From assembly GCA_015233405.1 (NCBI GenBank), contig JADFXT010000008.1:11250-75249 (forward strand): 64,000 nucleotides of DNA, given 5' to 3'. A program made the position numbers and the translations under genes. Source of the stretch: Candidatus Omnitrophota bacterium. Lineage in GTDB: Bacteria; Omnitrophota; Gorgyraeia; Zapsychrales; Zapsychraceae. Positions 1 to 17,500 of this stretch are shown piece by piece. The notes beneath the pieces were generated by a model that saw only the letters and a program-made list of their open reading frames with translations, was not told where the DNA came from and searched no databases. Positions within the stretch are counted from its first letter, which is position 1, and the number at the start of each line of letters is the position of its first letter.

Positions 1-3000
1 TTTTTTGTGGTTTCGGAAATAATACCAAAATAAAGATCCTGGAGATCTCTTTGTTCAAAGGTGATGGTGCTTTTTGCGTCGGCTCCTTCAGCGCGCACAA
101 CAATACCTCGCCGCGGTTGTCTCTGTTGTGTCGTCATGGCCGCGTCCGCAAGCTGTTTGTTATGAGCTTCTATGACGCGCGCGTCGATGCCTTTGTGTTT
201 ACTGTTGATTAAATCCGTCAATTTTTCAATTGTGCCAGCGGAAAGAGTGACGCCATATTTTTCCTGGAGAGACTGAATAACCTGGTCGGGAGCAACCCAG
301 CCGGCCTCTAAGAAAGATCCGCTTACGGAACTCTGTTCCTCTATATTCATTGTTTCATTCACAACCTTGGTTTTGCCATTTTCTAGAAACACCAAAGAAG
401 GCCGATCCTGAACTTGTTCAGTAGAAGACATATGGGCAAAATAAGGCAACATGGGCGATAAAATAAAGATCATATTTTTGAACGCTGTGCTCATCAGCCG
501 ATTCAATGACGATGTTTTCTTAAAAGCAGAGATAACAAACGGCATTTCTTTTAATAAAAATTCTTTAGGAATACCCTTCTTGACCATGGTCGGCATCACA
601 ACCGTGTCGGCGACATTTCCATTCACCTGAAGAATATCCAAAGCTTCTTGAATGATCTTGTGCTCAATCGGCTTTCCTTGTTGTTTTAAATCTTGATTGA
701 GGCTATCGACGAGGTCCTGATATTTTATGGACCCAATCACCATCGCAAGTTGCGACATCGCATAAGCCTTTAATTGTTTGACGGGCGAGGTGGGATGCAT
801 AATCCCGTCCTTGCCAGCCTCAAAAGGATGGTTCAAAAATTCCATATTTTCTGTTAAACTCAAATCCGCCACAGCATAACGAACGGCAGGGCTTCGAATA
901 ATGGCATTCCTGACATTTTCCCGCCATTCCCTTTTGTCTAATTGAGGCAATAATTTCGGATCAAGACTTGTAAACTGAAACAATCCTTTCACGTCTATTT
1001 CCGGGTTCATCATCTGTAAGATCGCGCAGAATAGCGGCGGAAATGTTTTAAAACCGCTATCCACAAAACGCACCTTTTTTAATTTATCAATACCCATTGC
1101 GCGCAATTCATCCTGAATTTCTTCGATCTTCGCTTTAAAGGCAGGGTCCTTTTTCATCATATCTTTAATATTCGATTTCAAACGAGACAAAAACTTATCA
1201 AAGTTATGACTACTGTAACGATTAGCCTCCATGATCGCGTCAGCAACATCATAATAAAACGGACTAAATGTCGCATTCTCGCCACTGATATAAAAAAGAT
1301 TGGGAATTCTTTCTTCGCCGCTTAAGAAAGACACAGCTTTTTCGCTTGTGTATAATAACCCCATGTCCCGAGGGAAAGTCACGTTCTGGTATTCCCCTTT
1401 ACCGTTATTGATCGTTTGCTCGCCGCCAAACGCAGACATGGCAAAAGCATAATCTAATTGCTCAGGACCTTTTTCAATCTCCTGAATTAATTGGGCGCGC
1501 ATATTATTAATATCATCTCGCATAAAGTGATTCGTAGCTTTTGATATTGCATCGTCGGCTAATTTGTTGACACTCTCTTTCCAAAGCGTATTGATCATTT
1601 GCCATCGCTCTTGTTCTGTAATCTTCCCTTGTTTGACTTCCTGGGCGCTTTGCATGGCGGCTTTAAGAATATCTTCGGCAAACTTGGGCGAATAAAGAAC
1701 CGGTAAATCCTGCTGTTCAAAAGTTATTGTATTATCAGCGATAACACCTTGAGGCTCGATCGGCGGCCGTCTTGTTCGTATGCTTGGTTGTTCGGTCGAG
1801 GTCGTCATGGCCGCGTCCATAAATTGTTTGTTATGCGTTTCTATGACACGAGCATCGACGCCTTTATGCTTACTGTTGATTAATTCTGTTAATTTTTCAA
1901 TGGTCCCGGCGGAGAGCGTAATATTATATTTCTCCTGAATAGCTTTTATCGCTTCAGACGGTTCAACCCATCCGGCCTGTAAAAACGACTCATCGACCGA
2001 GGCCACTTCTCTATGGCTTATTTCTTTCTCGCCTACTTGATTTTCACTGACAACCTTCGTCTTGCCATTTTCCAGAAGGACCAAGGACGGCCGCTCCTGA
2101 ATCTGCTGGGCAGGTGCCATGTGCGCGAAATAAGGCAACATCGGCGATAAGATAAGCAACAAATCCTTAAGCCCTTGCTTTGCCAGCCAATCCATCGATA
2201 AGGTTTTCTTGAAAGGAGATGTAGAAAATGGGTTTTCTTTTAAGAATTCCTGAGGAATACCCTTCTTGACCATGGTCGGCATCATCACGCTATCGCCAGA
2301 ATTCTCACTCACATGAACAACGTCCAGAGCTTCTTCAACAACATTGTGCCCAATCGTTTGAGCCTCTTGATTGGATTTTCCTTGAGCCTTCAAATCTTGA
2401 TTAAGACTGTTAAGAAGGAATTGGTATTTGATTGTGCCGATCACAAAACAGAGCTGCCCCCAATAGGCTTGTAATTGCTCGGTCTCAGATGTCGGACGCA
2501 TGGTCCCATCACCATCCGCTTTAAATGGGTGACGAAGATAATTGTCATTTTCTGACCATCTCAATGTCGGTTTAGCGTACATATCATTTTGAAAAACGCT
2601 CCTGACATTCTGGCTCCATTGGGATACATTTAATTCTTCAGCCAATTGAAGATCTGTCTCCTGAAAGAGCGCTTTAACTTTGATCTCAGGGTTCATCATA
2701 TGCAGAATCGCGCAGAACATCGGCGGAAATGTTCGATATCCGCTGTCGACAAAACGCACTTGCTTTAATTGGTCAACGCCCATGGCGCGCAGCTCATCCT
2801 GGATTTCTTCGATCTTCGCTTTGAAAAATATATCTTTTTCCATCCATTCCTTGATTTTGGTTTCTAATATAGCCAAAAAGTCATCGAAGTTACGCGCACC
2901 ATTATTGGCATGAGAAATAATGATGCCCATTTGATGATAATATTTATTAAATGTCCCGTTCGCACCGCTAATATAAAAAAGATTGGGAGTTCTTTTCTCG

Positions 3001-3420
3001 CCGGTCCAAAGAGCGCTACTCATTTCGCTGGTATACAATAACCCCATGTCCCGAGGGAAACTGACGTTCTGATATTCCCCATTGCCGTTATTGCGTGTTT
3101 GCTCACCGCCAAACGCAGCCATGGCATAGGCATAATCCAATTGACCGGGGTTTGAATCAATGTTCTGGATTATTTTGTCACGCGTCTCCTTGATCCCTTT
3201 CTTCGTGACTTGATCTTGGGTTTGAGCCAGCGCTTCATCCGCTAATTTGGTTACACTTTTTTTCCAAATTCTATTAAGCCGAATCCAGAGTTTTTCTTCG
3301 GTAATTTTTCCTTGTTTAATTTCCTCCATCCCTTGTAAGGCTGATTCAACCATGGCTTGAGCGCTTTTAGAAATAATCTCCCAATAAAGGACCGGTAAAT
3401 CCTGTTGCTCAAACTTAACC
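1..3420 (-). repeat. Tandem coding repeats of ~1.66-1.69 kb (~555-565 aa modules): two full units plus the start of a third, inside the 1-4706 CDS.
   Basis: The landmark FEQQDLPVLY recurs at ~3384-3410 and ~1692-1716, and as FEQRDLQDLY at ~30-60. Blocks that align between units include AFGGEQT.NNG.GEYQNV.FPRDMGLLYTSE, NLFYISG, FKAKIEEIQDELRAMG, VRFVDSG..TFPP.FCAIL.MMNPEI, MPTMVKKGIP.EFL, LSPMLPYFAHM, RPSLV.LENGKTKVV and LSAGTIEKLT.LINSKHKG.DARVIE.HNKQ. DNA is near-identical in stretches, for example ~1360-1460 versus ~3042-3142. Confidence 0.85.
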
Positions 3421-4706
3421 GAGTTGTCCTCCATTGGGATTTCGTCGCTGCTGCTATGCACAATAATCCCTCTGGATTCAATCCGCGGTCTTCTCTGTCG
3501 TCCACTCTGTCGGGCTAAAACACTAGCTTGGCCTATCTTAAAAAGATCCGTCACAACCTCTCTTAAATGATCCGTTTCTGTCAGGAAGGCAAATTCCCGG
3601 GCCTGTTCATCGCTCAATTCAGTCACCATGGCCAAATCTGTAAGTTTTAATCCTCGCATACCGCCGGAGAAATATTTTCTTGGAATGAGCGATTGCGTAA
3701 CGGGATCATATTCTTCTTTGATAAAGTTGTACGCGCCTTTCTTAAACGCCTCCAAATACCGGTCATAGATCTTCAGCTTCTCTTGCTTGTCTTTAATATC
3801 CACGCCAGCGGTCTTATTCTGATCAACGTAAGACTTGCCCAAGAGACTTTCTTTAAGATTCCGCTTAAACCATGTGGCTAAGATCATGGAATAATAAATC
3901 TGACGTAGCGGGGCAAAACTTTTTCCAACGTTTACTTCTTTTTCCAGCTCAGGGATGATGATTTCTTTAATAATCTGCGTAGGGGCGCGGTTCCCGCGCC
4001 CTTTATCCTCAGGGCGGGGAAACCCCGCCCCTACAATATTGGTGGACGCTAAATAATCCTCTTCCAACATCACCTTCAATTTCGCCTCTACAACGAACGC
4101 TTTATTCTCATGCTCATAAACAACCGCCTTCGCCGGAATGATCCACACTTTATTTAACGTATCGACCGGCACATCCGTCGTTCCGTATAATTCATACGAT
4201 TTCTTATAAATCTTGTCCCAAAATGTTTTCCCGATTTCTTTCTCAGGATTCATCAAAGAGCTTGTGATCTGTTTCAGCAAATAATCCTGAGCGAGTAAAT
4301 CACGGCCCATTTCTGTGACGCCGAATTTTTCCGGAATAATTCTGTCCGGCTCTTTCGGATTCAAGTTCACCCACATATCGTCTTCGGGTGTCGTTAACGA
4401 CGCTAAGAAATATTTGATCAGCTTGGTAGACTCTTGCTTAAACGCCTCGTCCTTTAAACCGGATTGGGCCGTGTCTACGATAAAGTCGAATCTTAAGGGA
4501 TTATCAGGGAATATTTTGATGCCTTTAATGACCGCAGGATTAAATGCCGGTGTTAAACCGAATTCTTGGACTATTGGTGCTGGAAGAGTTTGTGCGAAGG
4601 AAAGCTGAGCAGGAAGAACGGAATTGAGAATAAAGCTTAAAAGTATAAGAATATTAATCAACTTATACGTTTTACTTTTATAGCTTTTTTCTCGCCCCAG
4701 GATCAT
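1..4706 (-). CDS. Large secreted repeat protein of unknown function. The 5' end is complete and the 3' end lies beyond the window start.
   Basis: My reverse-complement translation from ATG 4706-4704 (AGGGGG SD-like motif at 4715-4720) gives MILGREKSYKSKTYKLINILILLSFILNSVLPAQLSFAQTLPAP..., which looks like a signal peptide. The frame stays open to base 1 (1,568 codons plus 2 nt). It is absent from the supplied track, presumably because no stop lies in the window. Other frames here give only 62-97 aa ORFs. I recognise no family. Confidence 0.8.
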   Translation of the reverse strand, partial: MILGREKSYKSKTYKLINILILLSFILNSVLPAQLSFAQTLPAPIVQEFGLTPAFNPAVIKGIKIFPDNPLRFDFIVDTAQSGLKDEAFKQESTKLIKYFLASLTTPEDDMWVNLNPKEPDRIIPEKFGVTEMGRDLLAQDYLLKQITSSLMNPEKEIGKTFWDKIYKKSYELYGTTDVPVDTLNKVWIIPAKAVVYEHENKAFVVEAKLKVMLEEDYLASTNIVGAGFPRPEDKGRGNRAPTQIIKEIIIPELEKEVNVGKSFAPLRQIYYSMILATWFKRNLKESLLGKSYVDQNKTAGVDIKDKQEKLKIYDRYLEAFKKGAYNFIKEEYDPVTQSLIPRKYFSGGMRGLKLTDLAMVTELSDEQAREFAFLTETDHLREVVTDLFKIGQASVLARQSGRQRRPRIESRGIIVHSSSDEIPMEDNSVKFEQQDLPVLYWEIISKSAQAMVESALQGMEEIKQGKITEEKLWIRLNRIWKKSVTKLADEALAQTQDQVTKKGIKETRDKIIQNIDSNPGQLDYAYAMAAFGGEQTRNNGNGEYQNVSFPRDMGLLYTSEMSSALWTGEKRTPNLFYISGANGTFNKYYHQMGIIISHANNGARNFDDFLAILETKIKEWMEKDIFFKAKIEEIQDELRAMGVDQLKQVRFVDSGYRTFPPMFCAILHMMNPEIKVKALFQETDLQLAEELNVSQWSQNVRSVFQNDMYAKPTLRWSENDNYLRHPFKADGDGTMRPTSETEQLQAYWGQLCFVIGTIKYQFLLNSLNQDLKAQGKSNQEAQTIGHNVVEEALDVVHVSENSGDSVMMPTMVKKGIPQEFLKENPFSTSPFKKTLSMDWLAKQGLKDLLLILSPMLPYFAHMAPAQQIQERPSLVLLENGKTKVVSENQVGEKEISHREVASVDESFLQAGWVEPSEAIKAIQEKYNITLSAGTIEKLTELINSKHKGVDARVIETHNKQFMDAAMTTSTEQPSIRTRRPPIEPQGVIADNTITFEQQDLPVLYSPKFAEDILKAAMQSAQEVKQGKITEQERWQMINTLWKESVNKLADDAISKATNHFMRDDINNMRAQLIQEIEKGPEQLDYAFAMSAFGGEQTINNGKGEYQNVTFPRDMGLLYTSEKAVSFLSGEERIPNLFYISGENATFSPFYYDVADAIMEANRYSSHNFDKFLSRLKSNIKDMMKKDPAFKAKIEEIQDELRAMGIDKLKKVRFVDSGFKTFPPLFCAILQMMNPEIDVKGLFQFTSLDPKLLPQLDKREWRENVRNAIIRSPAVRYAVADLSLTENMEFLNHPFEAGKDGIMHPTSPVKQLKAYAMSQLAMVIGSIKYQDLVDSLNQDLKQQGKPIEHKIIQEALDILQVNGNVADTVVMPTMVKKGIPKEFLLKEMPFVISAFKKTSSLNRLMSTAFKNMIFILSPMLPYFAHMSSTEQVQDRPSLVFLENGKTKVVNETMNIEEQSSVSGSFLEAGWVAPDQVIQSLQEKYGVTLSAGTIEKLTDLINSKHKGIDARVIEAHNKQLADAAMTTQQRQPRRGIVVRAEGADAKSTITFEQRDLQDLYFGIISETTK
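3979..4034. repeat. Pair of GC-only stem-loops (REP-like palindromic element) embedded in frame in the 1-4706 CDS.
   Basis: gtaggggcgcggttcccgcgccc (3979-4001) and gggcggggaaaccccgcccctac (4012-4034) are each a hairpin, and they are near inverted copies of each other. The minus frame reads them as VGAGFPRPEDKGRGNRAPT. They contrast sharply with the AT-rich flanks. Confidence 0.75.
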
Positions 4707-4797
4707 GATGTCTGCCCCCTATTAGACTTCATTTACTATGTCCTATATAAAGTATAAAACATAATAATGATATATATAAGGGCAAAACGGGGGTTTC

Positions 4798-5030: not shown

Positions 5031-5072
5031 TAAAGACAAAAAACGCGGGTTTGGAATTCCAAACCCGCGTTT
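5031..5072 (-). terminator. Rho-independent terminator for the 5102-6385 gene.
   Basis: aaacgcgggtttgg-aatt-ccaaacccgcgttt (5041-5072) forms a perfect 14-bp stem. On the minus strand it runs into TTTTTTGTCTTT, 30 nt after the TAA stop. Confidence 0.8.
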
Positions 5073-5101: not shown

Positions 5102-6385
5102 TTATTTGATCACAGATGTCTGTAATTGTTCTTCAAGCTCTCGAATATTTTCTTTCTTTTGATCAAGCTGTTCTTTGAAATAAAGGATATCCGTATTTTT
5201 CTCGTCGATGATATCGCCTTTCTCATAAACTTTTGCCAAATAATGATCCAAGTCTTTATACAAACGATGAAGCTCATCATATCGTTCTAACAAAGTATTA
5301 TGCGCTGATGCCAACTCCAGGCGATATTCAATGGCATGGCTCTTCTGCGGGTTCTGTTGCTTGGCATACAGATAATCCTCTAAAACAGCAAGCATTTGCC
5401 GGTTGGTCTCTTCCTGTTCCAAGGCTTTGTCCTTGGCTTCATTTTGTTCATCCAAAATAGCTGTCATTTTCTTTTCATAATCCAAGGCCTCTTGGGCGGA
5501 TTTTCTCATCTGTTCCTCCAAAAGGTCAATGGCCCGTCCCTGGACTTTTAAAGCCATCTGGGTCTCATCAGAATCTAAAGCCGGCGTCGGAGTTTCTTCT
5601 AAGGCTTCTGGTTCCATGGTCTCTTGAGGCTCTGTGAAAGTTTGAGCCCGATGCGCCACAACAGGCTTTTTATAAGCTAATTGATTTATAGATTTTTTCG
5701 CTTCAGTCTTTTTAGCAAGTTTTTTGGTTTCTGTTACTGGTTTGACTTCAGCAGAAGACTTTACAACAGGTTCTTTCACCGTGGGCGACACGACCGGCGC
5801 TGTTGTATCCGGCGCTTTTAATAAACGCTCTGCTAAAGCCATGTCTGCATTTTGCATAACTTTTTCGGCTTTGGCGATCTTCTGAGAAACTTTAGCGTGA
5901 GCAACTTTTCGCTTACTTTGTTCAATGTCTTTTTGAAGAGCGGCAATTTCTTTTAAAACCTCTCGGCTAAGATTGCCCATTCTATCCTGCGTCGGAGTAA
6001 TCGGAGCGCTCACTGGGGCAGCCGCAACCGCGCCTTCTGACGTCGGAAGAATGGCTAATTTTTCAACATTCTGGTCTTGTAAATTCTTGGCCAAATCCAC
6101 AAGCGACGTTAACCCCGTCTTTGTGCCGGCATACAACCCCTTTTCGATACCCATTTTATTTAAACCTTTAATGGCTTTTTGATTGGACGGGTCGATCAGA
6201 AGGGCTTTACTGAATTCATGCGCGGCATCATCATATTGCCCCCGGTCATAAGCCGTTTGGGCAATTTGAACTAAAAGCGCTGAACCTTCTTCTCTTAAGC
6301 TCTTCGCCCGGGCGTCAATCCCGAGGAAAAAAAACAATAGGCTGACGAATATCGTGGAAATAAAGATCTTTTTGGATATGTTCAT
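5102..6385 (-). CDS. Secreted or membrane-anchored TPR plus coiled-coil protein, function unknown (427 aa).
   Basis: ATG 6385-6383 is preceded by GGGGGAG (6389-6395). The N-terminus MNISKKIFISTIFVSLLFFFLGIDARA looks like a signal peptide. One TPR-like pair is present (AQTAYDRGQYDDAAHEFSKALLIDPSNQKAIKGL), followed by a P/A/K/E-rich linker and a heptad-like C-terminal half. The track ORF start at 6508 adds 41 residues ahead of the signal peptide and lacks an RBS. Confidence 0.8.
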   Translation of the reverse strand: MNISKKIFISTIFVSLLFFFLGIDARAKSLREEGSALLVQIAQTAYDRGQYDDAAHEFSKALLIDPSNQKAIKGLNKMGIEKGLYAGTKTGLTSLVDLAKNLQDQNVEKLAILPTSEGAVAAAPVSAPITPTQDRMGNLSREVLKEIAALQKDIEQSKRKVAHAKVSQKIAKAEKVMQNADMALAERLLKAPDTTAPVVSPTVKEPVVKSSAEVKPVTETKKLAKKTEAKKSINQLAYKKPVVAHRAQTFTEPQETMEPEALEETPTPALDSDETQMALKVQGRAIDLLEEQMRKSAQEALDYEKKMTAILDEQNEAKDKALEQEETNRQMLAVLEDYLYAKQQNPQKSHAIEYRLELASAHNTLLERYDELHRLYKDLDHYLAKVYEKGDIIDEKNTDILYFKEQLDQKKENIRELEEQLQTSVIK

Positions 6386-6527
6386 GTTCTCCCCCTTTTT
6401 TTTATTCTCCCGCTTAACCTGTGAATTGGTTTTTCGCGGGCAAAGTTCCCCAAACTCATCAACAAAGGAAAGTATAACATCCAGAAAACCACTCGACAAG
6501 GCAGCCAAGCCTCAAAAGGGCCTTTTT

Positions 6528-6549
6528 AGGAAAGCGCTGTCTTTTAGAA
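6528..6549 (+). promoter_or_regulatory. Conserved 22-nt intergenic motif, copy 2 (aggaaagcgctgtcttttagaa), in the divergent region upstream of mutS.
   Basis: It matches 4798-4819 at 20 of 22 positions. A TAGAAA -10-like hexamer lies ~65 nt upstream of the mutS ATG. Function is not established. Confidence 0.3.
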
Positions 6550-6611
6550 ATCTGTCGCTCCAAACACCTTTTTCCTTTTTTCCCTTTTTATTTTATGCTA
6601 TAAAGGTGCCT

Positions 6612-9233
6612 ATGGAATCATCCCCCAAGACGATTTCTCCAGAACAAATTCATCCATCTTCTGAAACGCCAAACGAACCGGCGGTTTCAACTCCGATGCT
6701 TAAGCAGTATCATATTATTAAGAAGAAGCATCAGGATTGCATCCTCTTTTTCCGGCTCGGAGATTTTTATGAGATGTTTTATGAAGATGCCAAGGTCGTT
6801 TCCAAAGAGCTCGATTTAGTCCTCACGGGCCGCGGCAAAGATATCAACGGCCGTGTCCCTATGTGCGGATTTCCCCACCACGCCTCGGAAAACTATATCG
6901 CCCGGCTTGTCAAGCGCGGCTATAAAATTGCCATCTGTGAACAACTCGAAGACCCGGCTTTAGCGAAAGGTATTGTTAAACGCGACATCATCCGTATTAT
7001 TACCGCTGGAACTTATCTGGATGAAAGCTCAACCGACACGCGGTATTTGCTCGCCTTAGCACCAACGCCTAAATCCATGGGCATTTCCTTTATCGACCCG
7101 GCCTCGGGTACCATTTATACAAACCAGTATCCTTACGATATCAAGCGCATTACTGAACTGTTGGCTAAACTTGCCGTTTATGAATGCATTTATCCCTCAT
7201 CTCAGGAAGAGCTGATCAAAAATATTTTTAAGCAACCTACTCTACAGCATAAAAATATTTGCCTAAGCTCCTATCAGGACTGGTGCTTTAATACCGAAAT
7301 GGCCCAAAAAAATATTTGTGAACACTTTGGCGTTCATAATTTAAGTGGTTTTGGGATTGACGAATTGCCTCAAGCCCAGGCGAGCTGTGGCGCGCTTCTG
7401 GAATATTTAAAAGAAATGAACAAGCAGCCGCTACGGCATATCGACCGGATTTCCCTTTATATAGATGAAGATTATGTTTTTATTACACCGGCCGCCACCC
7501 GGGGATTAGAACTTGAAAACTTTATTCAAACCCTGGATGAGACGCTCTCTCCTTTGGGCAAGCGAAAATTCCATTTTTGGTTCACGCATCCGGCTAAAGA
7601 CGTGGAGATCATTCGCGAGCGCCAAGAAGCAATCAAACTCCTTAAAAGACATGACCTTATTCAGAAGGATCTTAAGATTCACTTAAGCAAAATCACCGAT
7701 TTGGAAAAATGTTTGTCGCGTATCAGCTATGGATATACTCACGTCAAAGATTTGCTCGCACTACGAAATGCCTTGGTGCGTATACCGGATTTCATCAACA
7801 TCGTCCGGACGCTCAAAAACGCCAACGACCTTTTTGAAATCGAAGATATCCCGGAGCTTAGGATGCTTCTGGAACAAACGGTCAACGAAGACGTCCCGCT
7901 CTCCCATCCCGACGGAAAAATTATCAAGGCGGGCTATCATCCAGAGCTGGACAACTTGCGCAATATTCAAAACCACGGCCGCGAATGGCTTAAAAATTTT
8001 CAGGCCCAGGAGATCAAGAAAACCGGTATCAATTCTCTTAAAGTAGGGTTCAACAAAGTTTTCGGTTATTATATTGAAATCACGCGAAGCAATTTAGACC
8101 TTGTCCCGCCGGATTATATCCGCAAGCAAACCCTGGTCAATGGCGAGCGGTTCATCACGCCGGGATTAAAAGAATATGAAGAGAAGATCTTGACCGCAGA
8201 AGACAAAATTTTAAAGATCGAAAACGAGATCGTCCGCGAGCTTCACCAAAAAATTCTAGACCATTCGGAAAACCTGCACCGCTTCTGCCAGTCTCTCGCG
8301 ACCATCGACTGCCTGTACGCCCTAAGCATGCTCGCCAACAGTTATAATTATTGCTGCCCCGACGTCAACAATGGCGATGTCTTAAGTATCAAAGAGGGCC
8401 GCCATCCTGTGGTCGAGAAAACAACCACAGACACATTCGTGCCAAATGACACGCTTTTGGATAGTGAAGACAATCATCTGATTATCTTAACCGGGCCGAA
8501 CATGGCAGGCAAATCCACCTATATCCGCCAAAGCGCCCTGTTAACCATTATGGCGCAGACCGGAAGTTTTATTCCCGCCAAGAGTGCGACCATCGGTATT
8601 GTGGATAAAATTTTCACCCGCATCGGCGCGCACGACGACATCTCTAAAGGCCAATCGACTTTTATGGTCGAGATGAACGAAACCGCAGACATCTTAAACA
8701 ACCTGACGGATAAAAGCTTGGTCATTCTCGATGAGATCGGCCGCGGCACCAGCACCTACGACGGACTTTCATTAGCCTGGGCGCTTGCGGAACATTTTCA
8801 AAACACAAAAGCCCGCACGCTGTTTGCCACACATTTTCACGAACTGACCGCGCTCGCCGATAAATTACCGGGCATCAAGAACTACAATGTCGCGGTTAAA
8901 GAATGGAAAGACGAAGTGGTGTTCCTCCATAAGATCGTTCCCGGAAGCTCCGATGACAGTTATGGGATTTATGTCGCCAAACTCGCTGGCATTCCGGAAG
9001 AAGTTATCTTCCGTGCCAAGAAGATCCTGACCCAGCTGGAACTAAAGAACGACATCAAAGAGAATATCCGTCGGGATTTCCAAACAGAAGAACAACTGAA
9101 TCTTTTTATGACGCACAACGATCCCGTTTTGGAGGAGATCGTCAACACCATTAAAGCTTTGGATGTTAATAATTTGACTCCGCTGCAGGCGTTATCAAAA
9201 ATGCAGGAGATGAAGGAAAAGATTGAGAGATAA
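6612..9233 (+). CDS. mutS: DNA mismatch repair protein MutS.
   Basis: Hallmarks are TPMLKQYHIIKKKHQDCILFFRLGDFYEMF (mismatch-binding domain), Walker A GPNMAGKSTY, DEIGRGTSTYDG and FATHFHEL. I chose the ATG at 6612 (AAAGGTG 5 nt upstream). The track start at 6354 adds an implausible 86 aa that overlaps the divergent gene. Confidence 0.93.
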   Translation: MESSPKTISPEQIHPSSETPNEPAVSTPMLKQYHIIKKKHQDCILFFRLGDFYEMFYEDAKVVSKELDLVLTGRGKDINGRVPMCGFPHHASENYIARLVKRGYKIAICEQLEDPALAKGIVKRDIIRIITAGTYLDESSTDTRYLLALAPTPKSMGISFIDPASGTIYTNQYPYDIKRITELLAKLAVYECIYPSSQEELIKNIFKQPTLQHKNICLSSYQDWCFNTEMAQKNICEHFGVHNLSGFGIDELPQAQASCGALLEYLKEMNKQPLRHIDRISLYIDEDYVFITPAATRGLELENFIQTLDETLSPLGKRKFHFWFTHPAKDVEIIRERQEAIKLLKRHDLIQKDLKIHLSKITDLEKCLSRISYGYTHVKDLLALRNALVRIPDFINIVRTLKNANDLFEIEDIPELRMLLEQTVNEDVPLSHPDGKIIKAGYHPELDNLRNIQNHGREWLKNFQAQEIKKTGINSLKVGFNKVFGYYIEITRSNLDLVPPDYIRKQTLVNGERFITPGLKEYEEKILTAEDKILKIENEIVRELHQKILDHSENLHRFCQSLATIDCLYALSMLANSYNYCCPDVNNGDVLSIKEGRHPVVEKTTTDTFVPNDTLLDSEDNHLIILTGPNMAGKSTYIRQSALLTIMAQTGSFIPAKSATIGIVDKIFTRIGAHDDISKGQSTFMVEMNETADILNNLTDKSLVILDEIGRGTSTYDGLSLAWALAEHFQNTKARTLFATHFHELTALADKLPGIKNYNVAVKEWKDEVVFLHKIVPGSSDDSYGIYVAKLAGIPEEVIFRAKKILTQLELKNDIKENIRRDFQTEEQLNLFMTHNDPVLEEIVNTIKALDVNNLTPLQALSKMQEMKEKIER

Positions 9234-9297
9234 AAAACACAAGGAATTCTTTCTGAAATATCTTTTAATTGTTGTCCATGAATGTTTTCTTTGATTT

Positions 9298-9397
9298 TGT
9301 CATCCCCGCAATCCTTAGGCGGGGATCCAGAATTTTGAGAACATAGATTCCCGACCTGTCTGCCGACAGGCAGGCAAAAGCTTTCGGGAATGACAAC
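9298..9397. repeat. Two hairpin (REP/MITE-like) units between mutS and mutL.
   Basis: The units are tgtcatccccgcaatccttaggcggggatccag (9298-9330) and agattcccgac...tcgggaatgaca (9346-9397). They share the GTCATyCCCG...CGGGrATCCAG termini seen at 10477, 11337 and elsewhere. The first could double as the mutS terminator. Confidence 0.7.
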
Positions 9398-9459
9398 TAA
9401 AAGAAATAAAAACTGCATAAAAAAATAAGGACAAAAATTCTTTTAAAATTATAGAAATT

Positions 9460-11280
9460 ATGCCCAGAATAAATATTCTTCCCCCCAACTTAGTCAGTAA
9501 AATCGCAGCCGGAGAAGTTATTGAGCGGCCCGCCTCCGTCATCAAAGAATGCGTGGAAAATTCTCTGGATGCTGGTGCGACCTCTGTCGAAATTCACTTA
9601 AAGAATGCCGGCACAACGCTCATTCATATCAAGGATAACGGCGGCGGCATTGACCGTGACGACCTTGAGAGGATTTTTCTGCGTCACGCCACAAGTAAAA
9701 TCAAAAATGAAGACGACTTATATCAAATTCATTCACTCGGATTTCGCGGGGAGGCGCTCTACAGCATTGCTGCTATCGCCGATGTCACACTAAAAAGCAA
9801 GACCGAACACCAGCCCGAAGGCTGGGAAATCCATATCCGCGGCACCGAGCGTTTAGGGCTCAAACCGGCGGCAACACCCGGCCACGGCACGGAAATGGAG
9901 ATCAAAGAACTTTTTTATAATACTCCGGCGAGAAAAAAATTCCTAAAATCGAGCGCGACCGAGATCAATCAAATCTTAAACACCTTTATTCCTTATACGC
10001 TTTTATATCCCAGCGTCCGTTTTCTATTAACGCATCAAGGCAACAACTTAATCGACCTTTTACCGTCGGACAGTTTAACCAAACGCATTGCCCAAGCCCT
10101 TCATCTAGAAGAAAAATATCTGCTCGAGAAAATTCAGGACAACATTCATCTTGTCTTAGGCGACATGAACATCAAACGCGCCCGACGGGATTTACAATTT
10201 ATTTTCGTTAACGGCCGGCCGGTCCAAAATAAAAACATCTCTTTTCATCTTAATCAAATCTACCGGCTGATTATGCCGGAAGGCGATGTTCCCTTTTTCT
10301 GCGTCTTTATCGCCGTCCCGCCGGAAGATGTCGACGTTAATGTCCATCCCTCCAAACGGGAAGTTAAACTGAAAGACGAACAGGAAATTTGTTTAAAATT
10401 AAGAATTTTAGGGGAAGAAACGCTGATGCGGCAGGGAAATATAAAAGTAATCGTAAGTGATCCATCACAACCTATCTGTCATTCCCGCGAAAGCGGGAAT
10501 CCAGGGTTGGGGAGTAAAATTCTAGATGGAATTCAGAACCCCAGTAGAAATTCAAAAGAAATACTGGATCCCCGCTTTCGCGAGGATGACAGGAAAAGGG
10601 GCTGGGATGACAGAAACGATGCTTCGAACAATGATTTTCCACAAGAGACGCCCCCTCACACTGCCGAACAAATCTTCTTCATCCCGCCGGAGGAATTTTC
10701 CGTCGGAAAAAAAGAAAACCTGCAAGCCCAGCTTCAGCATGCCCGATTGATCGGCGCCTTCCTTAATAAATATCTTTTTTTCGAGCAAGGCCGGTCACTG
10801 CTTTTAATGGACCAGCATGCGGCGGCGGAGCGTATCAATTATGAAAAGTTCCTCAATCAAATCCGTAAAGGCCAAGTAGAGGTTCAGCATCTATTAACGC
10901 CGACGGTCATTCCACTTTCTCCTCAAGAGTTGATCGTTTGGGAAGAGACTCAGACCACTTTAGAAACAGTCGGGTTTTCCAATAATCAATGGGACAATAA
11001 GTCCATTGCCATTCATTCGCATCCGGCCATGATCCTTAACATCGAACGCGCTGTCAGAAATCTTTTAGCGGATGAAAAGATCGCACAAGACGATTGGGAA
11101 TCAATTGCCCGACGGGCATGCCGGGCATCTGTCATGACGGGAGATTATCTTAATGCTGAACAGGCAGACGGTTTGCGGTTACAATTACTGGAATGTTTCG
11201 ACCCCTTCACCTGCCCGCATGGACGGCCTACGGTCGTCGAAATCACAGAAGAATTTTTAGATAAACAGTTTTTGAGATAA
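9460..11280 (+). CDS. mutL: DNA mismatch repair protein MutL, endonuclease type.
   Basis: GHKL ATPase motifs are IAAGEVIERPASVIKECVENSLDAGAT, DNGGGI and LGFRGEAL. C-terminal motifs are DQHAAAERINYE and FTCPHGRP. Confidence 0.93.
   Translation: MPRINILPPNLVSKIAAGEVIERPASVIKECVENSLDAGATSVEIHLKNAGTTLIHIKDNGGGIDRDDLERIFLRHATSKIKNEDDLYQIHSLGFRGEALYSIAAIADVTLKSKTEHQPEGWEIHIRGTERLGLKPAATPGHGTEMEIKELFYNTPARKKFLKSSATEINQILNTFIPYTLLYPSVRFLLTHQGNNLIDLLPSDSLTKRIAQALHLEEKYLLEKIQDNIHLVLGDMNIKRARRDLQFIFVNGRPVQNKNISFHLNQIYRLIMPEGDVPFFCVFIAVPPEDVDVNVHPSKREVKLKDEQEICLKLRILGEETLMRQGNIKVIVSDPSQPICHSRESGNPGLGSKILDGIQNPSRNSKEILDPRFREDDRKRGWDDRNDASNNDFPQETPPHTAEQIFFIPPEEFSVGKKENLQAQLQHARLIGAFLNKYLFFEQGRSLLLMDQHAAAERINYEKFLNQIRKGQVEVQHLLTPTVIPLSPQELIVWEETQTTLETVGFSNNQWDNKSIAIHSHPAMILNIERAVRNLLADEKIAQDDWESIARRACRASVMTGDYLNAEQADGLRLQLLECFDPFTCPHGRPTVVEITEEFLDKQFLR
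10477..10613. repeat. Inverted pair of hairpin-repeat units inserted in frame in the mutL inter-domain linker.
   Basis: tgtcattcccgcgaaagcgggaatccagg (10477-10505) and its inverse ctggatccccgctttcgcgaggatgacagg (10564-10593) are followed by a further ggatgacag half-site at ~10605-10613. They are translated as ...ICHSRESGNPGLG...LDPRFREDDRKRGWDDRND. The alternative frame gives the WIPAFARMTGKGAGMT peptide typical of such elements. Confidence 0.75.
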
Positions 11281-11311
11281 AAATAAATCCCCACCACCGC
11301 TATACAGATTG

Positions 11312-11534
11312 CTTCTTCAGGCTTCGCTTATCTACATTTGTCATTCCCGCGATCCCACCCAAAAGCGAGAATCCAGCCTTTTAAAATCGTGGATCCCCGA
11401 CCAACCCATTCGGGGATGACAATCTTTAGTTTTTTGCTGTCATTCCCAACTTCCTCGATTTTTTTATCTAGAAATGATTGGGAATCCAGGAAATAATTTA
11501 AGATACTGGATCCCGGGTCTTCGTCCGGGATGAC
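11312..11534. repeat. Cluster of four hairpin (REP/MITE-like) units in the convergent mutL / giant-ORF intergenic region.
   Basis: The cluster contains cttcaggcttcgcttatc...tgtcattcccgcg...gcgagaatccag (11337-11377), ggatccccgaccaacccattcggggatgac (11391-11420), tgtcattcccaac...ttgggaatccagg (11438-11490) and ctggatcccgggtcttcgtccgggatgac (11506-11534). These probably act as terminators for both convergent genes. Confidence 0.75.
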
Positions 11535-11572
11535 AAAATACGGATTCTTTTCACTACCGACAATGCATCTTC

Positions 11573-14500
11573 CTAAACCCGAATAATCATTCCATAAAAA
11601 TCAGATCCCGCCGGGCGATAAAGATGCCCTTTCGAATCCATTTCAATAAGACAAATAGCTTCAACAGGTTTTAAACGCTCAATGCTTAAGAATTCCTCTC
11701 GCACCCAATCCGTTCCGGCGAGCCGGTGCATATTGCCTGCATAATTAAGCGTAATATCATAGACGGGCTTACGGGTATCTTTTCTAGGAGCCTTGATTCT
11801 CCGCCGAAAATCACGGTCAATTTTCTTGCTCAACTCTTTTTCCACTAACCTAATATTAGTCTGGTCTATCTCACCCGTCGAAGGAACTTCTGGATAAAAG
11901 AAAACCTCTGCTTTTCCAAAAATATGTTGATAGCGTTTTGGCATCAAAGACCATAGCGGTATCCATATCAGAAATGGCTTTCTTCGATCAAAAATAATAA
12001 TAATTCTTTTATCTTTGTTTATAACGTATGGACGAGGTTTCCGTTGGCACAAATGTTTTTCCTTAATAAGAGGTTTGATGGCCGGCGGGGTCCAAGGTTT
12101 AACGCCCTCACCCGGGCCCTCAAAAATTCTTCCGCCCTTTATTCCGCCGCAACATTTCCGTCGACATCGGGATCTCAAATAACGATAAGGCTTAAAAGAC
12201 GAGCAACCTGGCACGAACGGTTTAACGTAAGGACTGGACGGATATTTTTCTTCACCATAAAGCTTTGCCTCCTTTTTAAACCAAGGATAAATAATATAAC
12301 GCCTCCAAGCCCCATATCGTCGACGGCGCTCGCGGCGTTTACAATTACGGATTCTATCTTTCCAATCCTTAGGCCAATCTTTCTCGTCATGGTTCGCCAA
12401 ATAATCATAAATGCAAGTCCGCGAACAGTCTGCCGCTACGACACAACCTTTGCAGTCGGGATACGATTCGCTTTTGGGCATCGCTGTCGCACCTAAGACC
12501 GGCACTGCGGCCATGGCAATTCCGGCAGTATGGAACCCAATCCCCGACGGAAAAATCATCTCTCCAATTAAACCGGCGATCGTAAAAAGCCCAACAACTA
12601 AAACCAATTTTAAGGCTGTCTTAAACCATGTTTCTTTTTTCTCAACCCGATGGCTCATTTGAAGATATACGGCTTGGGCGCTGTTTTTATAACCCGCATC
12701 ATTAATATCTTCGACAATATCCCTTGTATTCTCCAGCACAACCTTGGCTTCTGCGGCTAATCCTAATTTAATGAGCGCATCCATGCCATCGCCATTCATT
12801 TGGGCCATCTCATTACGCAGGCGGTCCTTTTCACTTGGCTCTACAGTCTTTCCTAGTTTTGCATCCAAGACGGAAATCGACATCAGATACTGGATAAAAT
12901 CATTTTGATCCACCGTATAGTCTGCCTGTTGATTTAAAGAAAATAATTCTTTAGCCATATCAAGAGCCAAATTATATTGAAAACTTCCCAATACCCGAGC
13001 GAGAAAGAACCGGGCCACCGTAATAAATAAATCTTTTTGCTCTTTGTTTTGTGCCGACGGAATGATGTAATATTTCACATACGAAGAACAATAAGCAATG
13101 AAAGACTGATATGCCGTCCGGTCAAACGCAGAGAGTTTAGCCAATAGTTTTACAAAATTTTTCCAATAGACTCCGGTGTTATAATAGCCGGCTATTTTCA
13201 TCATGCCATTCATAGCGCCGCAAGCGGCTTCATTGATCTCTTGCTGACTTTTCGCGTCAAGCGCTTTGTCTTCGTCGATGGATTTAGAAATTCCATCCTC
13301 GATTTTTGCCATGTTCTTTGGTATTTCATAAGCATTAACAACAGCCCTGTCGAGCCGGCCTGTTTTATCCCCATAGTCACGGATATGCAGCTTAATAATG
13401 TTTGCCGCGCCCTCTTTTTCAGCCAGATTATTTAGAAAATAGATCCACGATTCCAAATAAACCGAGCTGCTTTCGATCATCTTATCGGACAAAATAGACT
13501 TTTCTAAGTCGGGGAGAGCAGCGGAATATTCCTGGGAACAAAGCATGTTTAGCTCCCTAGCAAATTCCATGCGGATTTCAAGCAATTCCTTGTTACCAGC
13601 ATTGATGGCCTTTAGACAATCATCGCCTAACGACTTCATCACGGCCATAAATTTTTCCTGGTCAAGCGCGGCACATTGTTGAACGCTTCGGCCCTGAAAC
13701 ATCGGTCCTTCTTCAATGATTTTAGCTGATGCTGCTTTCTCCTCGGGCTTAACGGCTGTCGGAAGCTCTTGCACAGGCTTAGTAACGACCGCGGCCGATT
13801 CATTGATCATTTCAATATAAAGGTGATTATCTATGCCTAGGTCTTGCCAATTTTTCGTAAACTGCGATGACGTAAAAGAAACGGTCAGCTGCTGCAAAAT
13901 AATATCCAGCCGGGCTTGTTGTCCTGCGGGAATTTTTTTAATCATAGCGCTAATCGCAATTCTTTCACTCAATGCATCTAAATAGCTTTTGTCCAATGCC
14001 AGTTCTTCTTCGCTGCCTAATTTAATCGTATACTGGCTGTAAATATCCGCTAAAGCATCCTCCTCAGCCTCGGACTCAAATAATTTTTCTCCTAATAAGC
14101 TTTCTGCCAACTCGATTAACGGATGGAAAAATTCATGATGGTCAATAAAACGAGACAACATTCTCTGATTTTCTACGCTTAATAATCTCGGATTGATTTC
14201 TTTGAGTTTCTGCTCACGTTCTTCTGCATCCGCAATATTGAATATTTCCGTCACTTTCAAGTGGTCAACAATCATCTTTCCTTGCCCCGGCGCGCCGGAC
14301 TTCGGCACATATTTGCCGTAAACAACACCACTGCGGGCAAAAGTTTTTCCGGCGAGAGCGGCAGGATTGGAGTCCTCATGAAGCCCGGCAGATTCATTCT
14401 TTGACATGGCTTTTAAACAATTACATTCCGGCAAATAAGAGCCGCTGTTACGTTTTTCCCTGAACGCTCGAATCTCGTCACTGTTCCAATGCTCTGAGAA

Positions 14501-17500
14501 AGGCTTTGTCCCAAGCTGGCTTCCTAAAGTTAAATAAGGCAATTTATAACAGGCCGTCAAATACCCCTTATAGTCGATACAAGCCTCACTATTTAAAAGG
14601 CAATTTCCTTTAGACGCTTCTTTGATGTCCCAGAAAAAGAGGCTTATGCCATACTTTTTACATTCTTCTGTGACTTCTTTGCGCAGGCGATTTAAAGTTT
14701 CTTCGTCATGAACTGCAATGTCCGTAATTCTCGGGACACACCCCTCCAAAATCCTCAGCTCTAAACTTTTCGCCCCCCAAGACGCTATGGCAGCCGGCAT
14801 TTCTTTTAATTTATCGATATTGTGGCGTGTAATAATGCAATTGATCCAAATAGGAATATCTGTTCTTTGCGCAAAATTTTTCAAATTTTCAATAATCGGC
14901 TCTAATGAGTACCGGCGGACTGCCCGATAAGATTCCGCATCTGGACCGTCTATGCTCACTTTAAGCATCGTAATTCCTGAATCCTTTAATTCATCTATAA
15001 GTTTCGTCGTCAATAGTGTGGCGTTCGTTATTAATTCTATTTCGGTGTCCGAACTTTTCTGCCGGATGTACTTAATCATCGCAATAAGATAAGGATTAAG
15101 CGTCGGCTCGCACGTGCCGCAGAATTGAACTTTCGACAAGACGTAATCAAAAGAATCGATAATGCGCTTAAAAGTTTCAAAAGACATATGTTCGACCTTC
15201 TGATTGAGATGATCTTTATCTCGGCGATTACAAAACGTGCATTGTAAATTACAAGAATTAGATATCTCGATTTCCAGAAAACTCGGGCCAGGATTTAGAG
15301 AATCAAAGATCTCCAACTCCTCTGCCACATCATGAGCTTTAATGCGGTCAGGGCTCTTGGAATAGAACAATCGGTATTCAAAATATTCGTGGCGTTTAAC
15401 TGAGACAGACAGGGCGTTCGTCCGGCGGGTCACATAGAGGATATTCTTACCGTTTTCCAAACGGATCACAGCGCCGTAATCGTCAGATTCATTTTTGACA
15501 TCGACGAGATAAGCGGCGTCAATAAGTGTCAGCGGCGGAGCGTTCGCATAACCCGCGGATTTAAGCTCGCTTTCCAATCTCTTATTTTCAATTTCTAGGA
15601 ATTGATTGTAACTTTCTTTAAGTTTGGTAGATTCCTCTTTGTTTGATTGATTATTGACCGCGGCGATCTGCTCGTCGCTTAGCTTACCGTTGGCCCCGCG
15701 GGGGATAGAAACTGCTGATGATAATGCCTGTGGTCTGCGGATATAGTCTTTACCATAATCGCGGATAAAATCTTTCATCGGGCGATACCAGAAGAAATAG
15801 GAGCCTTCAGGATAAAAATCGATTTCTCTTTTCGTTTTATTGATCAAATCCCACAAGATTCGTTTGTTTTTCCCAGGCAATTGTTCCCATCCTCTTACGA
15901 ACCCTAAATGTGTTAACGCCTCGTCGACTTTCTTGACCTCAGCAAAATTTCCGGTGTATGCATAAACAAACGCCCAACGGATATCATTGCCCAATTGTTT
16001 GCCGATGCCATAAGCGCCGGTAAAAAGACGACGGAATTTATTCTGTCCTCGGGAAGCGCGAGAACGAGGAACAATCTTGGGGAAAACATCATTGCAACTA
16101 TAGACGACGACTGCTTTCTCTGTTAAATGTCCGGAGATATAACTCTTTGGCGATACGTCCAAAATAAGATGCCGCGCATTTAAATCCGGCATGAACATGT
16201 CGTGATCATCGACTTGCCAAGTCTCTGTTAAACCATTGAGCCTGCGTTTTCTTGTGATAGGAAGAACGTCATCGGATTCGAGCGGGCTTAAAGCCGCAGC
16301 TAAATTTCCGACTGCCGGCGGGAATTGCAAAGGCTCATCGCTTCGTCCATAACGCGCCAGATCTTCAGCCCGGCGTCGGTCGCCAAACATACTATACGGC
16401 GGACGGTTCGTCGAAGAGTTTCTTTTATTCCATTGTTCTCTCCAGTATTCGTCAATAATATGTCTAGCATTTCGAAAGTCTTCTCGACCGGCTTCTCCTC
16501 TGCGCGCCTCGTGCTCGGCATCCCAAGGCGACTTCCCTTTTATCAGTAAACGCAGATATTCAACTCCATTTTTCGGGTCATTGGTCTGCCGCGTCAATTC
16601 ATAAGCCATGCCTTCCAATATGAAACCCTGTTTCTGAGCCAAAGCCCCATCTTTTTCATCGACGCCAATCTGAATGCCTGCTTCTTTCATGCGTTCGTCA
16701 GCACCGATATTCTTTTGCATAATTACTATGCCTTGTTTGATCAGGCGGTTCCGAAGAGAAGAACGTTTGGTAGAAAGCACAGCAGCATAATCCGTATGCA
16801 AATAATCAGAAAAAGCATACGCCAAAGGAAAATCTTTATATTGTCGGATATTATTTAAATAATGAACAAGCTCATGATCAACAACGATCATAAATTCATT
16901 GAGCGAAAGACCAATATCAATGGAAATATTAGAAACCTTCTCTCGTCCTATAATCCAGCCCCCTGTCAAGGCATAAGCGGTTAAGAATACACCCAAAGCA
17001 TTGAGGGCCACAAAAACAACGTTAGTTACCGTCTTAAAATCATGATACGCACAAATCAAAACTACGATTCCTGCAATCATCGATAAAGAAATAACCCCTA
17101 AAAGAACCATCATCAGCGGTTTTCTAAACCATTTCGTCAATGAAAGACCTAATTCAGACCCAATCGACCTCGGCGTCCAATGAATATAATTAAAATGTTG
17201 ATTGATTTCTTCCTGCCATGTCGTCGGGAAAAACATTTGCGCTATCGCTTGAACTCGCTGTTCAATAACCTTTTTCTGTTCTGGAATAAATTCTTTGCCC
17301 ATCAATAACTTTTTAAAAGTCTGCCCAAAGGAAAGCTGGACCGCATGTGAGCCTTTTCCATTCCACGAGCGCAAATTACGAGCTTTATTTAAGAATTCTT
17401 TCAAAATCAATGATATGACAACAATCGTAACCACCAAACTTGCCACCAGAAAAATGCTACCGGCAAGTCTAAGCGCCGCCGTAAAACCTCCGGCAAAGAC

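Follow-up and report, generated by a model that had tools for sequence, protein, structure and literature searches.

An exported protein with putative CriT-like tandem modules belongs to an undescribed head-cargo-tail family of Omnitrophota

Introduction

The minus strand of the first 4.7 kb of a 64,000-nucleotide stretch of DNA from a Candidatus Omnitrophota bacterium (GenBank assembly GCA_015233405.1, contig JADFXT010000008.1, positions 11,250 to 75,249; the whole stretch is termed the window below) carries a long open reading frame (ORF) that runs off the window edge and encodes tandem units of about 560 amino acids. The frame was missing from the supplied gene track, probably since such listings drop frames that run off a window. 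The first-pass annotation nevertheless described it as a large secreted protein, with repeat units of a globular and possibly enzymatic kind, that might be another giant gene next to a 52-kb ORF in the same window. The locus therefore raises the question of what kind of protein is encoded here, and whether it belongs with the giant proteins of this phylum or with something else.

Omnitrophota are widespread uncultured nanobacteria that are thought to live as predators or parasites, and the puzzle posed by their unusually long proteins, studded with enzyme domains, is a recognised one. Here we find that the target gene is not obviously a giant gene. The encoded protein is a member of an Omnitrophota family, very large and so far undescribed, whose proteins carry a signal peptide and a conserved N-terminal head ahead of swappable enzyme cargo and a short conserved tail. 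The cargo of the target is of a rare, tandem kind that resembles the CriT transferase of the capsule polymerase Bcs3.

Results

The open frame and its export signal

Translation of window positions 1-4760 gave a single minus-strand frame from an ATG at 4706 to base 3, with 1,568 codons and no stops. The overlooked stop or frameshift that could have undone the first-pass annotation was not found in this interval. At 43% GC an open run of this length would be far beyond chance. The codons TAA and TAG are located in frame just 5' of the ATG, and a ribosome-binding site (RBS; AGGGGG, 4715-4720, minus strand), read directly from the sequence, lies 8 nt 5' of it. The first 38 amino acids (4593-4706, minus strand) have the features of a signal peptide, with a lysine-rich n-region, a hydrophobic core of 16 residues (LINILILLSFILNSVL) and a predicted signal peptidase I (SPase I) site between the alanine and glutamine of SFAQ. 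A 19-mer scan identified this core as the sole hydrophobic stretch in the visible 1,568 amino acids. The good start and export signal claimed for the frame are thus present, and the visible 4.7 kb are most likely the 5' part of an Omnitrophota gene whose modular product is exported through Sec.

A family with a shared head and tail

In a homologue search in which 8,000 candidates were scored, at least 3,714 protein clusters matched the target protein; 120 relatives were listed. Most matches align only to the first 20-25% of the query, and nearly all are confined to the head region, with few extending over the modules. The region they share is a domain of about 310 residues (aa 39-349; 3660-4592, minus strand) that ends in PRKYFSGG and defines the family. 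The first-pass annotation had proposed a head of about 420 residues. A leader does precede the repeat units, but its conserved part stops at aa 349 (YFSGG). The next 82 residues (aa 350-431; 3414-3659, minus strand) form a linker that holds the sequence DLAMVT (3621-3638) and a basic RRPRIESRGIIV stretch. That this conserved part recurs throughout a family had been overlooked.

Head identity among members is 55-78%, mostly 55-65%. All named organisms among the 120 listed relatives are Omnitrophica or Omnitrophota, and two names read only "hydrothermal vent metagenome". When 60 family sequences were aligned, 46 head columns and three tail columns proved invariant. This tail, of about 65 residues with the pattern GGIDLNP...GFxPVIINIxP..NLPxLLG, is found at the C-terminus of relatives, including the closest one (P0001). 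A hidden Markov model (HMM) of the tail matched the C-terminus of 105 of the 120 listed relatives, and most of the others are truncated by contig ends. The export signal is equally widespread: among 74 complete N-termini a hydrophobic core was present in 70 and a small-x-small cleavage site followed by glutamine in 61, typically SYA followed by Q.

Relatives with both head and tail range from 872 to 4,628 aa, and more than 50 different Pfam accessions were found between the two ends in the listed relatives. This cargo includes metabolic enzymes (adenylate kinase, phosphoglucomutase, UDP-glucose pyrophosphorylase, phosphoglucose isomerase (PGI), phosphoglycerate kinase, phosphoenolpyruvate carboxykinase, pyruvate phosphate dikinase, isocitrate lyase/malate synthase and glutamate dehydrogenase), modifying enzymes (methyltransferases, GNATs, SNF2 helicases, UbiB kinases, Ser/Thr kinases, PP2C, and M48 and M3 peptidases), and receiver domains, DnaJ, HEAT, TPR and WD40 repeats.

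Head and tail had no Pfam, NCBIfam or PDB sequence match, a combined head and tail profile giving only noise against PDB, and the whole target protein gave sub-threshold noise or nothing against Pfam, NCBIfam and PADLOC. An AlphaFold2 (AF2) model of an 875-aa homologue (P0078) was confident over most of residues 45-300 in the head and reached a per-residue confidence (pLDDT) of 93 in the tail. Foldseek searches with this head-cargo-tail model returned nothing credible (best E value 0.48 in PDB; noise in BFVD with a TM score of 0.07). The searchable part of the literature on long Omnitrophota proteins does not describe the shared head and tail.

A short motif, D-x-A-M-[STVL]-[STNV], was counted 60 times among the 120 relatives, where 1.2 occurrences were expected from shuffled sequences, an enrichment of about 50-fold. 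It lies at junctions: 35% of members have D.AM no more than 70 aa past the head and 24% have it no more than 45 aa ahead of the tail, compared to 1% in shuffles. The target carries three copies, DLAMVT at aa 357 just past the head and DAAMTT at aa 964 and 1521 at the module ends, and both DAAMTT copies are followed by a basic linker that is predicted to be disordered. The motif may mark where the chain is processed, or it may act as a structural cap. With its signal peptide, its head and its junction motifs, the target is a member of the head-cargo-tail family.

In P0002 and other members D-x-A-M is directly followed by a hydrophobic stretch of membrane-spanning length, such as DAAMTTVIIKLSSMVALGALMASL. 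Judged by such stretches, some cargo regions may be membrane-inserted.

Tandem modules of the target

The tandem units of about 1.68 kb that had been described were recovered as units of 1,692 and 1,662 nt. They start at aa 432, 996 and 1550 with FEQQDLPVLY or FEQRDLQDLY and end in ...DAAMTT. Module 1 (aa 432-995, 564 aa; 1722-3413, minus strand) consists of domain A of about 385 aa (2259-3413), a hydrophobic spacer modelled with low confidence, and the small helical domain B (1800-1991), whose end is marked by DAAMTT (1800-1817) with the linker RRPPIEPQGVI (1740-1772) located 3' of it. Within domain A the FPRD motif is located at 3048-3059 and FVDSG at 2739-2753. Module 2 (aa 996-1549, 554 aa; 60-1721, minus strand) has the same layout, with FPRD at 1365-1376, FVDSG at 1053-1067 and DAAMTT at 129-146. 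Of module 3 the first 19 residues (FEQRDLQDLYFGIISETTK; 3-59, minus strand) are visible, and the gene continues past the window edge.

The two complete modules are 56-58% identical in protein sequence (BLASTP 56%, E = 0) and 66.5% identical in DNA sequence, with a longest common nucleotide run of 32 nt. The nonsynonymous divergence (dN) was 0.30 and the synonymous divergence (dS) 1.77, corresponding to a dN/dS of about 0.17. From the DNA identity, the dS and the short identical runs, the copies are old, selected duplicates rather than the assembly artefact that had been a worry: the duplication behind the repeat is old and its copies are under purifying selection, and no assembler could have collapsed or invented the repeat.

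Module alignments identified R121-D122, S149, D223-x-G225, T228 and P230 (module numbering) as invariant or nearly so; in a wider alignment R121 was invariant and D122 and D223 were at least 90% conserved. The blocks FPRDMGLLY and VRFVDSG..TFPP, singled out earlier as conserved, are present and contain residues from this set.

The module family is rare. A word-indexed search with unit 1 alone gave no match, an outcome attributed to its candidate limit, even though a relative with 50% identity exists (P0001), and an exhaustive profile HMM search was used instead; among 1.84 billion proteins it found 75 representatives, 19 of them at E < 1e-30. Several module-bearing proteins have the head and some the tail too, with sizes up to 4,628-5,003 aa. 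A stand-alone homologue, a 351-aa protein, is encoded by a metagenome-assembled genome (MAG) of Bryobacteraceae, where its genomic context was uninformative. Module-like domains were also located within ORFs that are open across entire 14-21 kb loci (L001, L002 and L006; more than 4,500-6,900 codons). The module domain is thus reused in giant Omnitrophota proteins.

The closest relative of the target, P0001, has 2,272 aa and a head 78% identical to that of the target. Its head is followed by two modules, an uncharacterised region, a weak match to the haloacid dehalogenase (HAD) family that carries an IDLDES motif, and the tail. The target units are 58% identical to each other and 45-49% identical to either P0001 unit. 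Since the target units are mutually closer, module copy number changes within lineages.

Searches of the C-terminal region of P0001 against PDB sequences gave only coiled-coil and designed-protein noise. At aa ~1640-1800, past its two modules, this protein also has a catalytic-loop-like pattern (QHDSHAGGF...IDKSQAF) that is reminiscent of PI3/4-kinase-like enzymes and has no Pfam or PDB sequence match.

The modelled module fold resembles CriT

The AF2 model of the module had a pLDDT of 74.8 and a predicted TM score (pTM) of 0.75, with pLDDT values below 50 for unit residues 537-564. The six best Foldseek matches in PDB were all chains of Bcs3, with 361-379 columns aligned, E values between 1.7e-3 and 1.8e-2 and probabilities reaching 0.99. 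The Thermobacillus composti ribofuranosyltransferase 7SHG was also among the matches, and its TM score ranked with the highest of those listed.

Bcs3 is the capsule polymerase of Haemophilus influenzae type b, and CriT is its ribofuranose-5-phosphate transferase, which depends on phosphoribosyl pyrophosphate (PRPP) and acts alongside the HAD phosphatase CrpP (PMC10299916). CriT spans Bcs3 residues 599-959 (361 residues): a first helical bundle, HB-1, is formed by 599-654 and 904-959, a phosphoribosyltransferase-like core of five parallel strands by 655-715 and 796-903, and a second bundle, HB-2 (716-795), is inserted into the core (PMC10299916). The active site comprises S678-R679-D680, S707-R708, R712, E818 and the loop 821-825; R679/D680, in the loop past strand 1, and E818, past strand 3, hold ribose and pyrophosphate, and S707/R708, R712 and the loop bind phosphates, T825 contacting the 5-phosphate of PRPP (PMC10299916).

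The module model follows the same order. Helices (1-110) are followed by a strand (115-118) leading into P-R-D, a short strand before S149, a helical insert (156-210), a strand (218-223) that ends in D223 and continues into G225...T228, and returning helices (310-362). By this order both folds would have a helical bundle, a phosphoribosyltransferase-like core split by a second bundle, and helices that return to the first one (PDB 8A0M/8A0C). By motif position and spacing, the R-D pair and the acidic-G-T loop have putative counterparts in CriT, and a serine is located 27 residues after the aspartate in each case (D122 to S149 in the module, D680 to S707 in CriT). At 361 columns, one Foldseek alignment is exactly as long as Bcs3 residues 599-959, and the HAD-like match downstream of the modules in P0001 has a parallel in CrpP.

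There are also differences. The module is tandemly repeated, is placed behind a signal peptide and head and carries the extra helical domain B, and the target has neither a TagF-like partner nor an SH3b domain and no detectable sequence-level similarity to Bcs3. Assignment of the module itself as a HAD phosphatase of the CrpP type was rejected: it has no DxD, and strand 1 is followed by F-P-R-D (A-R-D in relatives), which places a proline or alanine at the position of the nucleophile. Pfam searches with remote module homologues and with large module-bearing proteins gave nothing useful.

The suggestion that the units are globular and enzyme-like rather than a simple structural repeat thus agrees with the confidence of the model, the conserved polar residues and the CriT-like fold. 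From the modelled structure we infer that the modules are CriT-like transferases that would bind PRPP or a related phospho-sugar.

Genomic context of the target and its relatives

Family genes occur in multiple copies. At least four named matches share the locus tags of one MAG (HQL24). A metagenome scan with head patterns gave at least 600 head stretches, and 15 of the 80 loci retrieved hold two or three head genes. One locus (L005) has two head-tail genes in tandem, at 8828-13501, with a single module, and at 13447-21135, encoding more than 2,500 aa. The genes upstream of this pair (bioD/bioA, mnmA and PGI) are syntenic with those of another locus (L007). Since stand-alone genes for PGI and phosphofructokinase (PFK) were found close to family genes, the fused enzymes are additional copies and not the housekeeping set.

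At L007 a 1,714-aa relative (P0111; 10001-15145) is encoded inside a complete type II secretion system (T2SS) operon, in the order gspE, a small ORF, the family gene, gspF, gspG, minor pseudopilins, gspK, pilMN and pilO, with a secretin gene further on. Another member (P0022) lies directly 3' of a 20,264-aa ORF and has a secretin gene 3.6 kb away. Linkage to the T2SS as a rule for the family was contradicted, as the arrangement of P0111 was not seen at 80 other loci. Substrates of the T2SS are often encoded apart from the secretion genes, and missing linkage therefore says nothing on export by this route.

In the window, the gene located upstream of the target (5102-6385, minus strand) encodes 427 aa from its likely ATG, with a signal peptide, one tetratricopeptide repeat (TPR) unit and a long C-terminal part that is charged and coiled-coil-like. 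NCBIfam gives a weak match (E 1e-4) to a type IV pilus outer-membrane TPR protein. The TTG listed as its start, at 6508, lies in an overlap with the mutS ORF and was probably set too far upstream. A strong terminator-like hairpin with a 14-bp stem and a T-run (5041-5072, minus strand) is located 3' of this gene and closes it, which makes the target its own transcription unit. Ordinary genes for mutS (6354-9233, plus strand) and mutL (9460-11280, plus strand) separate the target from the giant ORF; the GTG listed as the mutS start, about 110 residues before MutS domain I, is probably too far upstream. The giant ORF (11573-63766, minus strand; 17,397 aa) is 6.9 kb away from the target. It lacks the head, the tail and the D-x-A-M motif and is not a family member. 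Its listed N-terminus seems to start within a domain, and the true start may be further upstream, near the window end.

A palindrome in the head loop

A GC-rich imperfect palindrome with 24-nt arms is located within the head-coding sequence (3979-4034). Its arms are 88% complementary, it is unique in the window, and it is translated in frame into the peptide NIVGAGFPRPEDKGRGNRAPT in a variable loop of the head. A near-identical peptide is present in the same loop of a relative from another genome (P0015), and P0001 carries a different long insert there (…MDSRLRGNDRNRDGNDRNGKRND…). From its sequence, the palindrome looks like a REP/RPE-type element inserted in frame into a tolerant loop.

Discussion

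We suggest that the target is an exported head-cargo-tail protein with CriT-like modules, in which head and tail serve as common handles; we give this reading as a whole about an even chance of being right. The role of head and tail is speculative. They would probably be shared handles by which any intervening cargo is routed or anchored, either beyond the cytoplasmic membrane or within a prey or host cell. If the modelled fold is a guide, the modules are most likely transferases that bind PRPP or another phospho-sugar and act on a polymeric acceptor. Since nearly all cargo needs ATP, S-adenosylmethionine (SAM), PRPP or similar cofactors, exported enzymes would make most sense inside another cell. 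Such delivery would fit the predatory or parasitic lifestyle that two publications propose for Omnitrophota (10.1101/2023.11.21.568195; PMC10066038).

Several observations weigh against this reading. The Foldseek match to Bcs3 is borderline, with no hit at E <= 0.001 and a TM score of about 0.2, and searches of PDB and Pfam with the module profile and broadened profiles gave nothing besides coiled-coil and designed-protein noise in PDB. The structure prediction that had been recommended for one unit pointed to Bcs3, and the profile searches came back empty. The equivalent of CriT R708 is glycine in the clade of the target (ISG), although remote homologues keep the arginine (LSR). Homologues of GspD/E/F/G/K or PilMN were found at none of the 80 loci (995 kb) and not in the target window. 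Beyond housekeeping synteny no recurrent neighbour family was found at these loci, and thus no conserved partner gene. The C-terminus of the target lies beyond base 1 of the window, and the tail is known from relatives only. Finally, PRPP, ATP and SAM are cytoplasmic cofactors, and enzymes acting in the periplasm or the extracellular space would be in an awkward place unless their target is the cytoplasm of another cell.

A bolder version of the proposal, which we think possible but doubt, is that head and tail are the universal tags of an unrecognised delivery or self-assembly system of Omnitrophota. Each genome would then encode dozens of paralogous exported carriers of glycolytic and ATP-generating enzymes, kinases, methyltransferases, helicases and, in the target, CriT-like transferases that act inside the prey or host cell, with the head as the translocation or docking device and the D-x-A-M motifs as release sites.

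It is rather unlikely, in our judgement, that the family instead forms a scaffold or coat anchored to the envelope. The N-terminal segment, or head and tail together, would fix the proteins to the envelope as an enzyme-displaying layer on the surface or in the periplasm that is neither released nor injected, possibly by head-to-tail association between molecules. The exceptional conservation of the head despite unrelated cargo is what a structural or assembly interface would show, the tail is modelled with high confidence, and the cargo of some members has stretches resembling transmembrane segments. A protein coat has been published for Velamenicoccus (PMC10066038). An 8-residue tail segment (GFxPVII) also resembles the first head strand (xFxPxII), but with an hhalign P of 0.11 over 8 columns the likeness falls short of significance, and homology of the tail to the first head hairpin was rejected. 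The conserved SPase I-type site points to cleavage of the N-terminal segment rather than to its use as an anchor, and enzymes displayed outside the cytoplasm would be without ATP, SAM or PRPP.

The junction motif could also point to a polyprotein, a reading we find distinctly unlikely. Here D-x-A-M-[ST]-[ST] and the basic RRPxIExxG linkers would be processing sites that, after export, yield free head, modules and tail. The strong enrichment of the motif past the head, at module ends and before the tail is in agreement with this, as are the linkers past the motif, which fall within the low-confidence residues 537-564 of the unit and are predicted to be disordered. Self-cleavage by their own peptidase domains has been proposed for giant Omnitrophota proteins in a preprint (bioRxiv 10.1101/2023.11.21.568195). 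The motif is not universal, however, being present in only about a third of members past the head and a quarter before the tail. No protease domain was found in the target and no conserved neighbouring protease at family loci, and the position of the motif directly before a hydrophobic helix in some members rather suggests a structural cap.

Placing the enzymes on the membrane's cytoplasmic side would solve the cofactor problem. An uncleaved N-terminal anchor would tether an array of enzymes in the cell's own cytoplasm, in accordance with the cytoplasmic types of cargo and their dependence on nucleotide cofactors. A 2026 preprint interprets many of the long Omnitrophota proteins that have this Pfam repertoire as anchored in the inner membrane with cytoplasmic domains (10.64898/2026.06.07.730766). 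The positive n-region, hydrophobic core and small-x-small site of the family nevertheless predict an N-in/C-out orientation with cleavage, which leaves the cargo outside, and the fused enzymes are extra copies beside stand-alone housekeeping PGI and PFK. We consider this arrangement improbable.

That the frame is a pseudogene remnant, a chance ORF or a set of mis-assembled repeats is effectively refuted: the gene is truncated by the window and its exact sequence had no match in the public collections searched (61-mers in genome and metagenome contigs), but the 1,568 open codons, the RBS and signal peptide, the close similarity of the head to that of its nearest homologue, the dN/dS between the copies and their limited nucleotide identity all speak for a functional gene. 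Look-ups by exact protein sequence of the upstream TPR protein, from two alternative starts, and of P0001 gave no record either.

The giant or long proteins of Omnitrophota ("Archaeovorins"; West-Roberts et al., 2023; a 2026 complete-genome preprint) are a close comparison. They come from the same phylum and place the same mix of cytoplasmic-type enzymes behind signal peptides or transmembrane segments. The module-like domains within the giant ORFs of L001, L002 and L006 are a further likeness, as is physical proximity, since the target and P0022 both lie near such an ORF. They differ in that these sources, in their searchable parts, describe no shared head or tail for them, and in that members with head and tail have 872-4,628 aa and not more than 10,000. 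The suggestion that the target might be another giant gene is therefore unsupported or undecidable from the window: its closest relative has 2,272 aa.

Conserved trafficking domains combined with variable cargo are known from the TPS domain of TpsA/CdiA, the C-terminal domain of the type IX secretion system (T9SS) and polymorphic toxins. The Omnitrophota family shares with these a signal peptide, a conserved terminal domain, swappable cargo, multiple copies and tandem arrays. Neither sequence nor fold matches them, however, and both ends are conserved in the Omnitrophota family. Its cargo consists of metabolic and regulatory enzymes, unlike the polymorphic toxins with their immunity genes, and no dedicated transporter gene is linked to it. 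Classification of the target as a giant repetitive adhesin (RTX/type I secretion or Ig-like) was rejected, as it has a signal peptide, a 560-aa alpha/beta enzyme-like unit and no adhesin match in Pfam.

Besides the giants, Omnitrophota thus have thousands of mid-sized proteins built on a single plan of signal peptide, head, any enzyme and tail. Because this plan is invisible to Pfam and NCBIfam, annotation names the members by their cargo ("adenylate kinase", "phosphoglucomutase") or as hypothetical proteins. Metabolic reconstructions of Omnitrophota are distorted accordingly, as exported enzymes of the fused kind may be taken for housekeeping copies. If the assignment is true, the module would add a new phylum and a tandem-repeat setting to the range of the recently found PRPP-dependent glycosyltransferase fold. 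The shared head and tail provide an experimental handle on the destination of these enzymes and on their possible delivery to prey.

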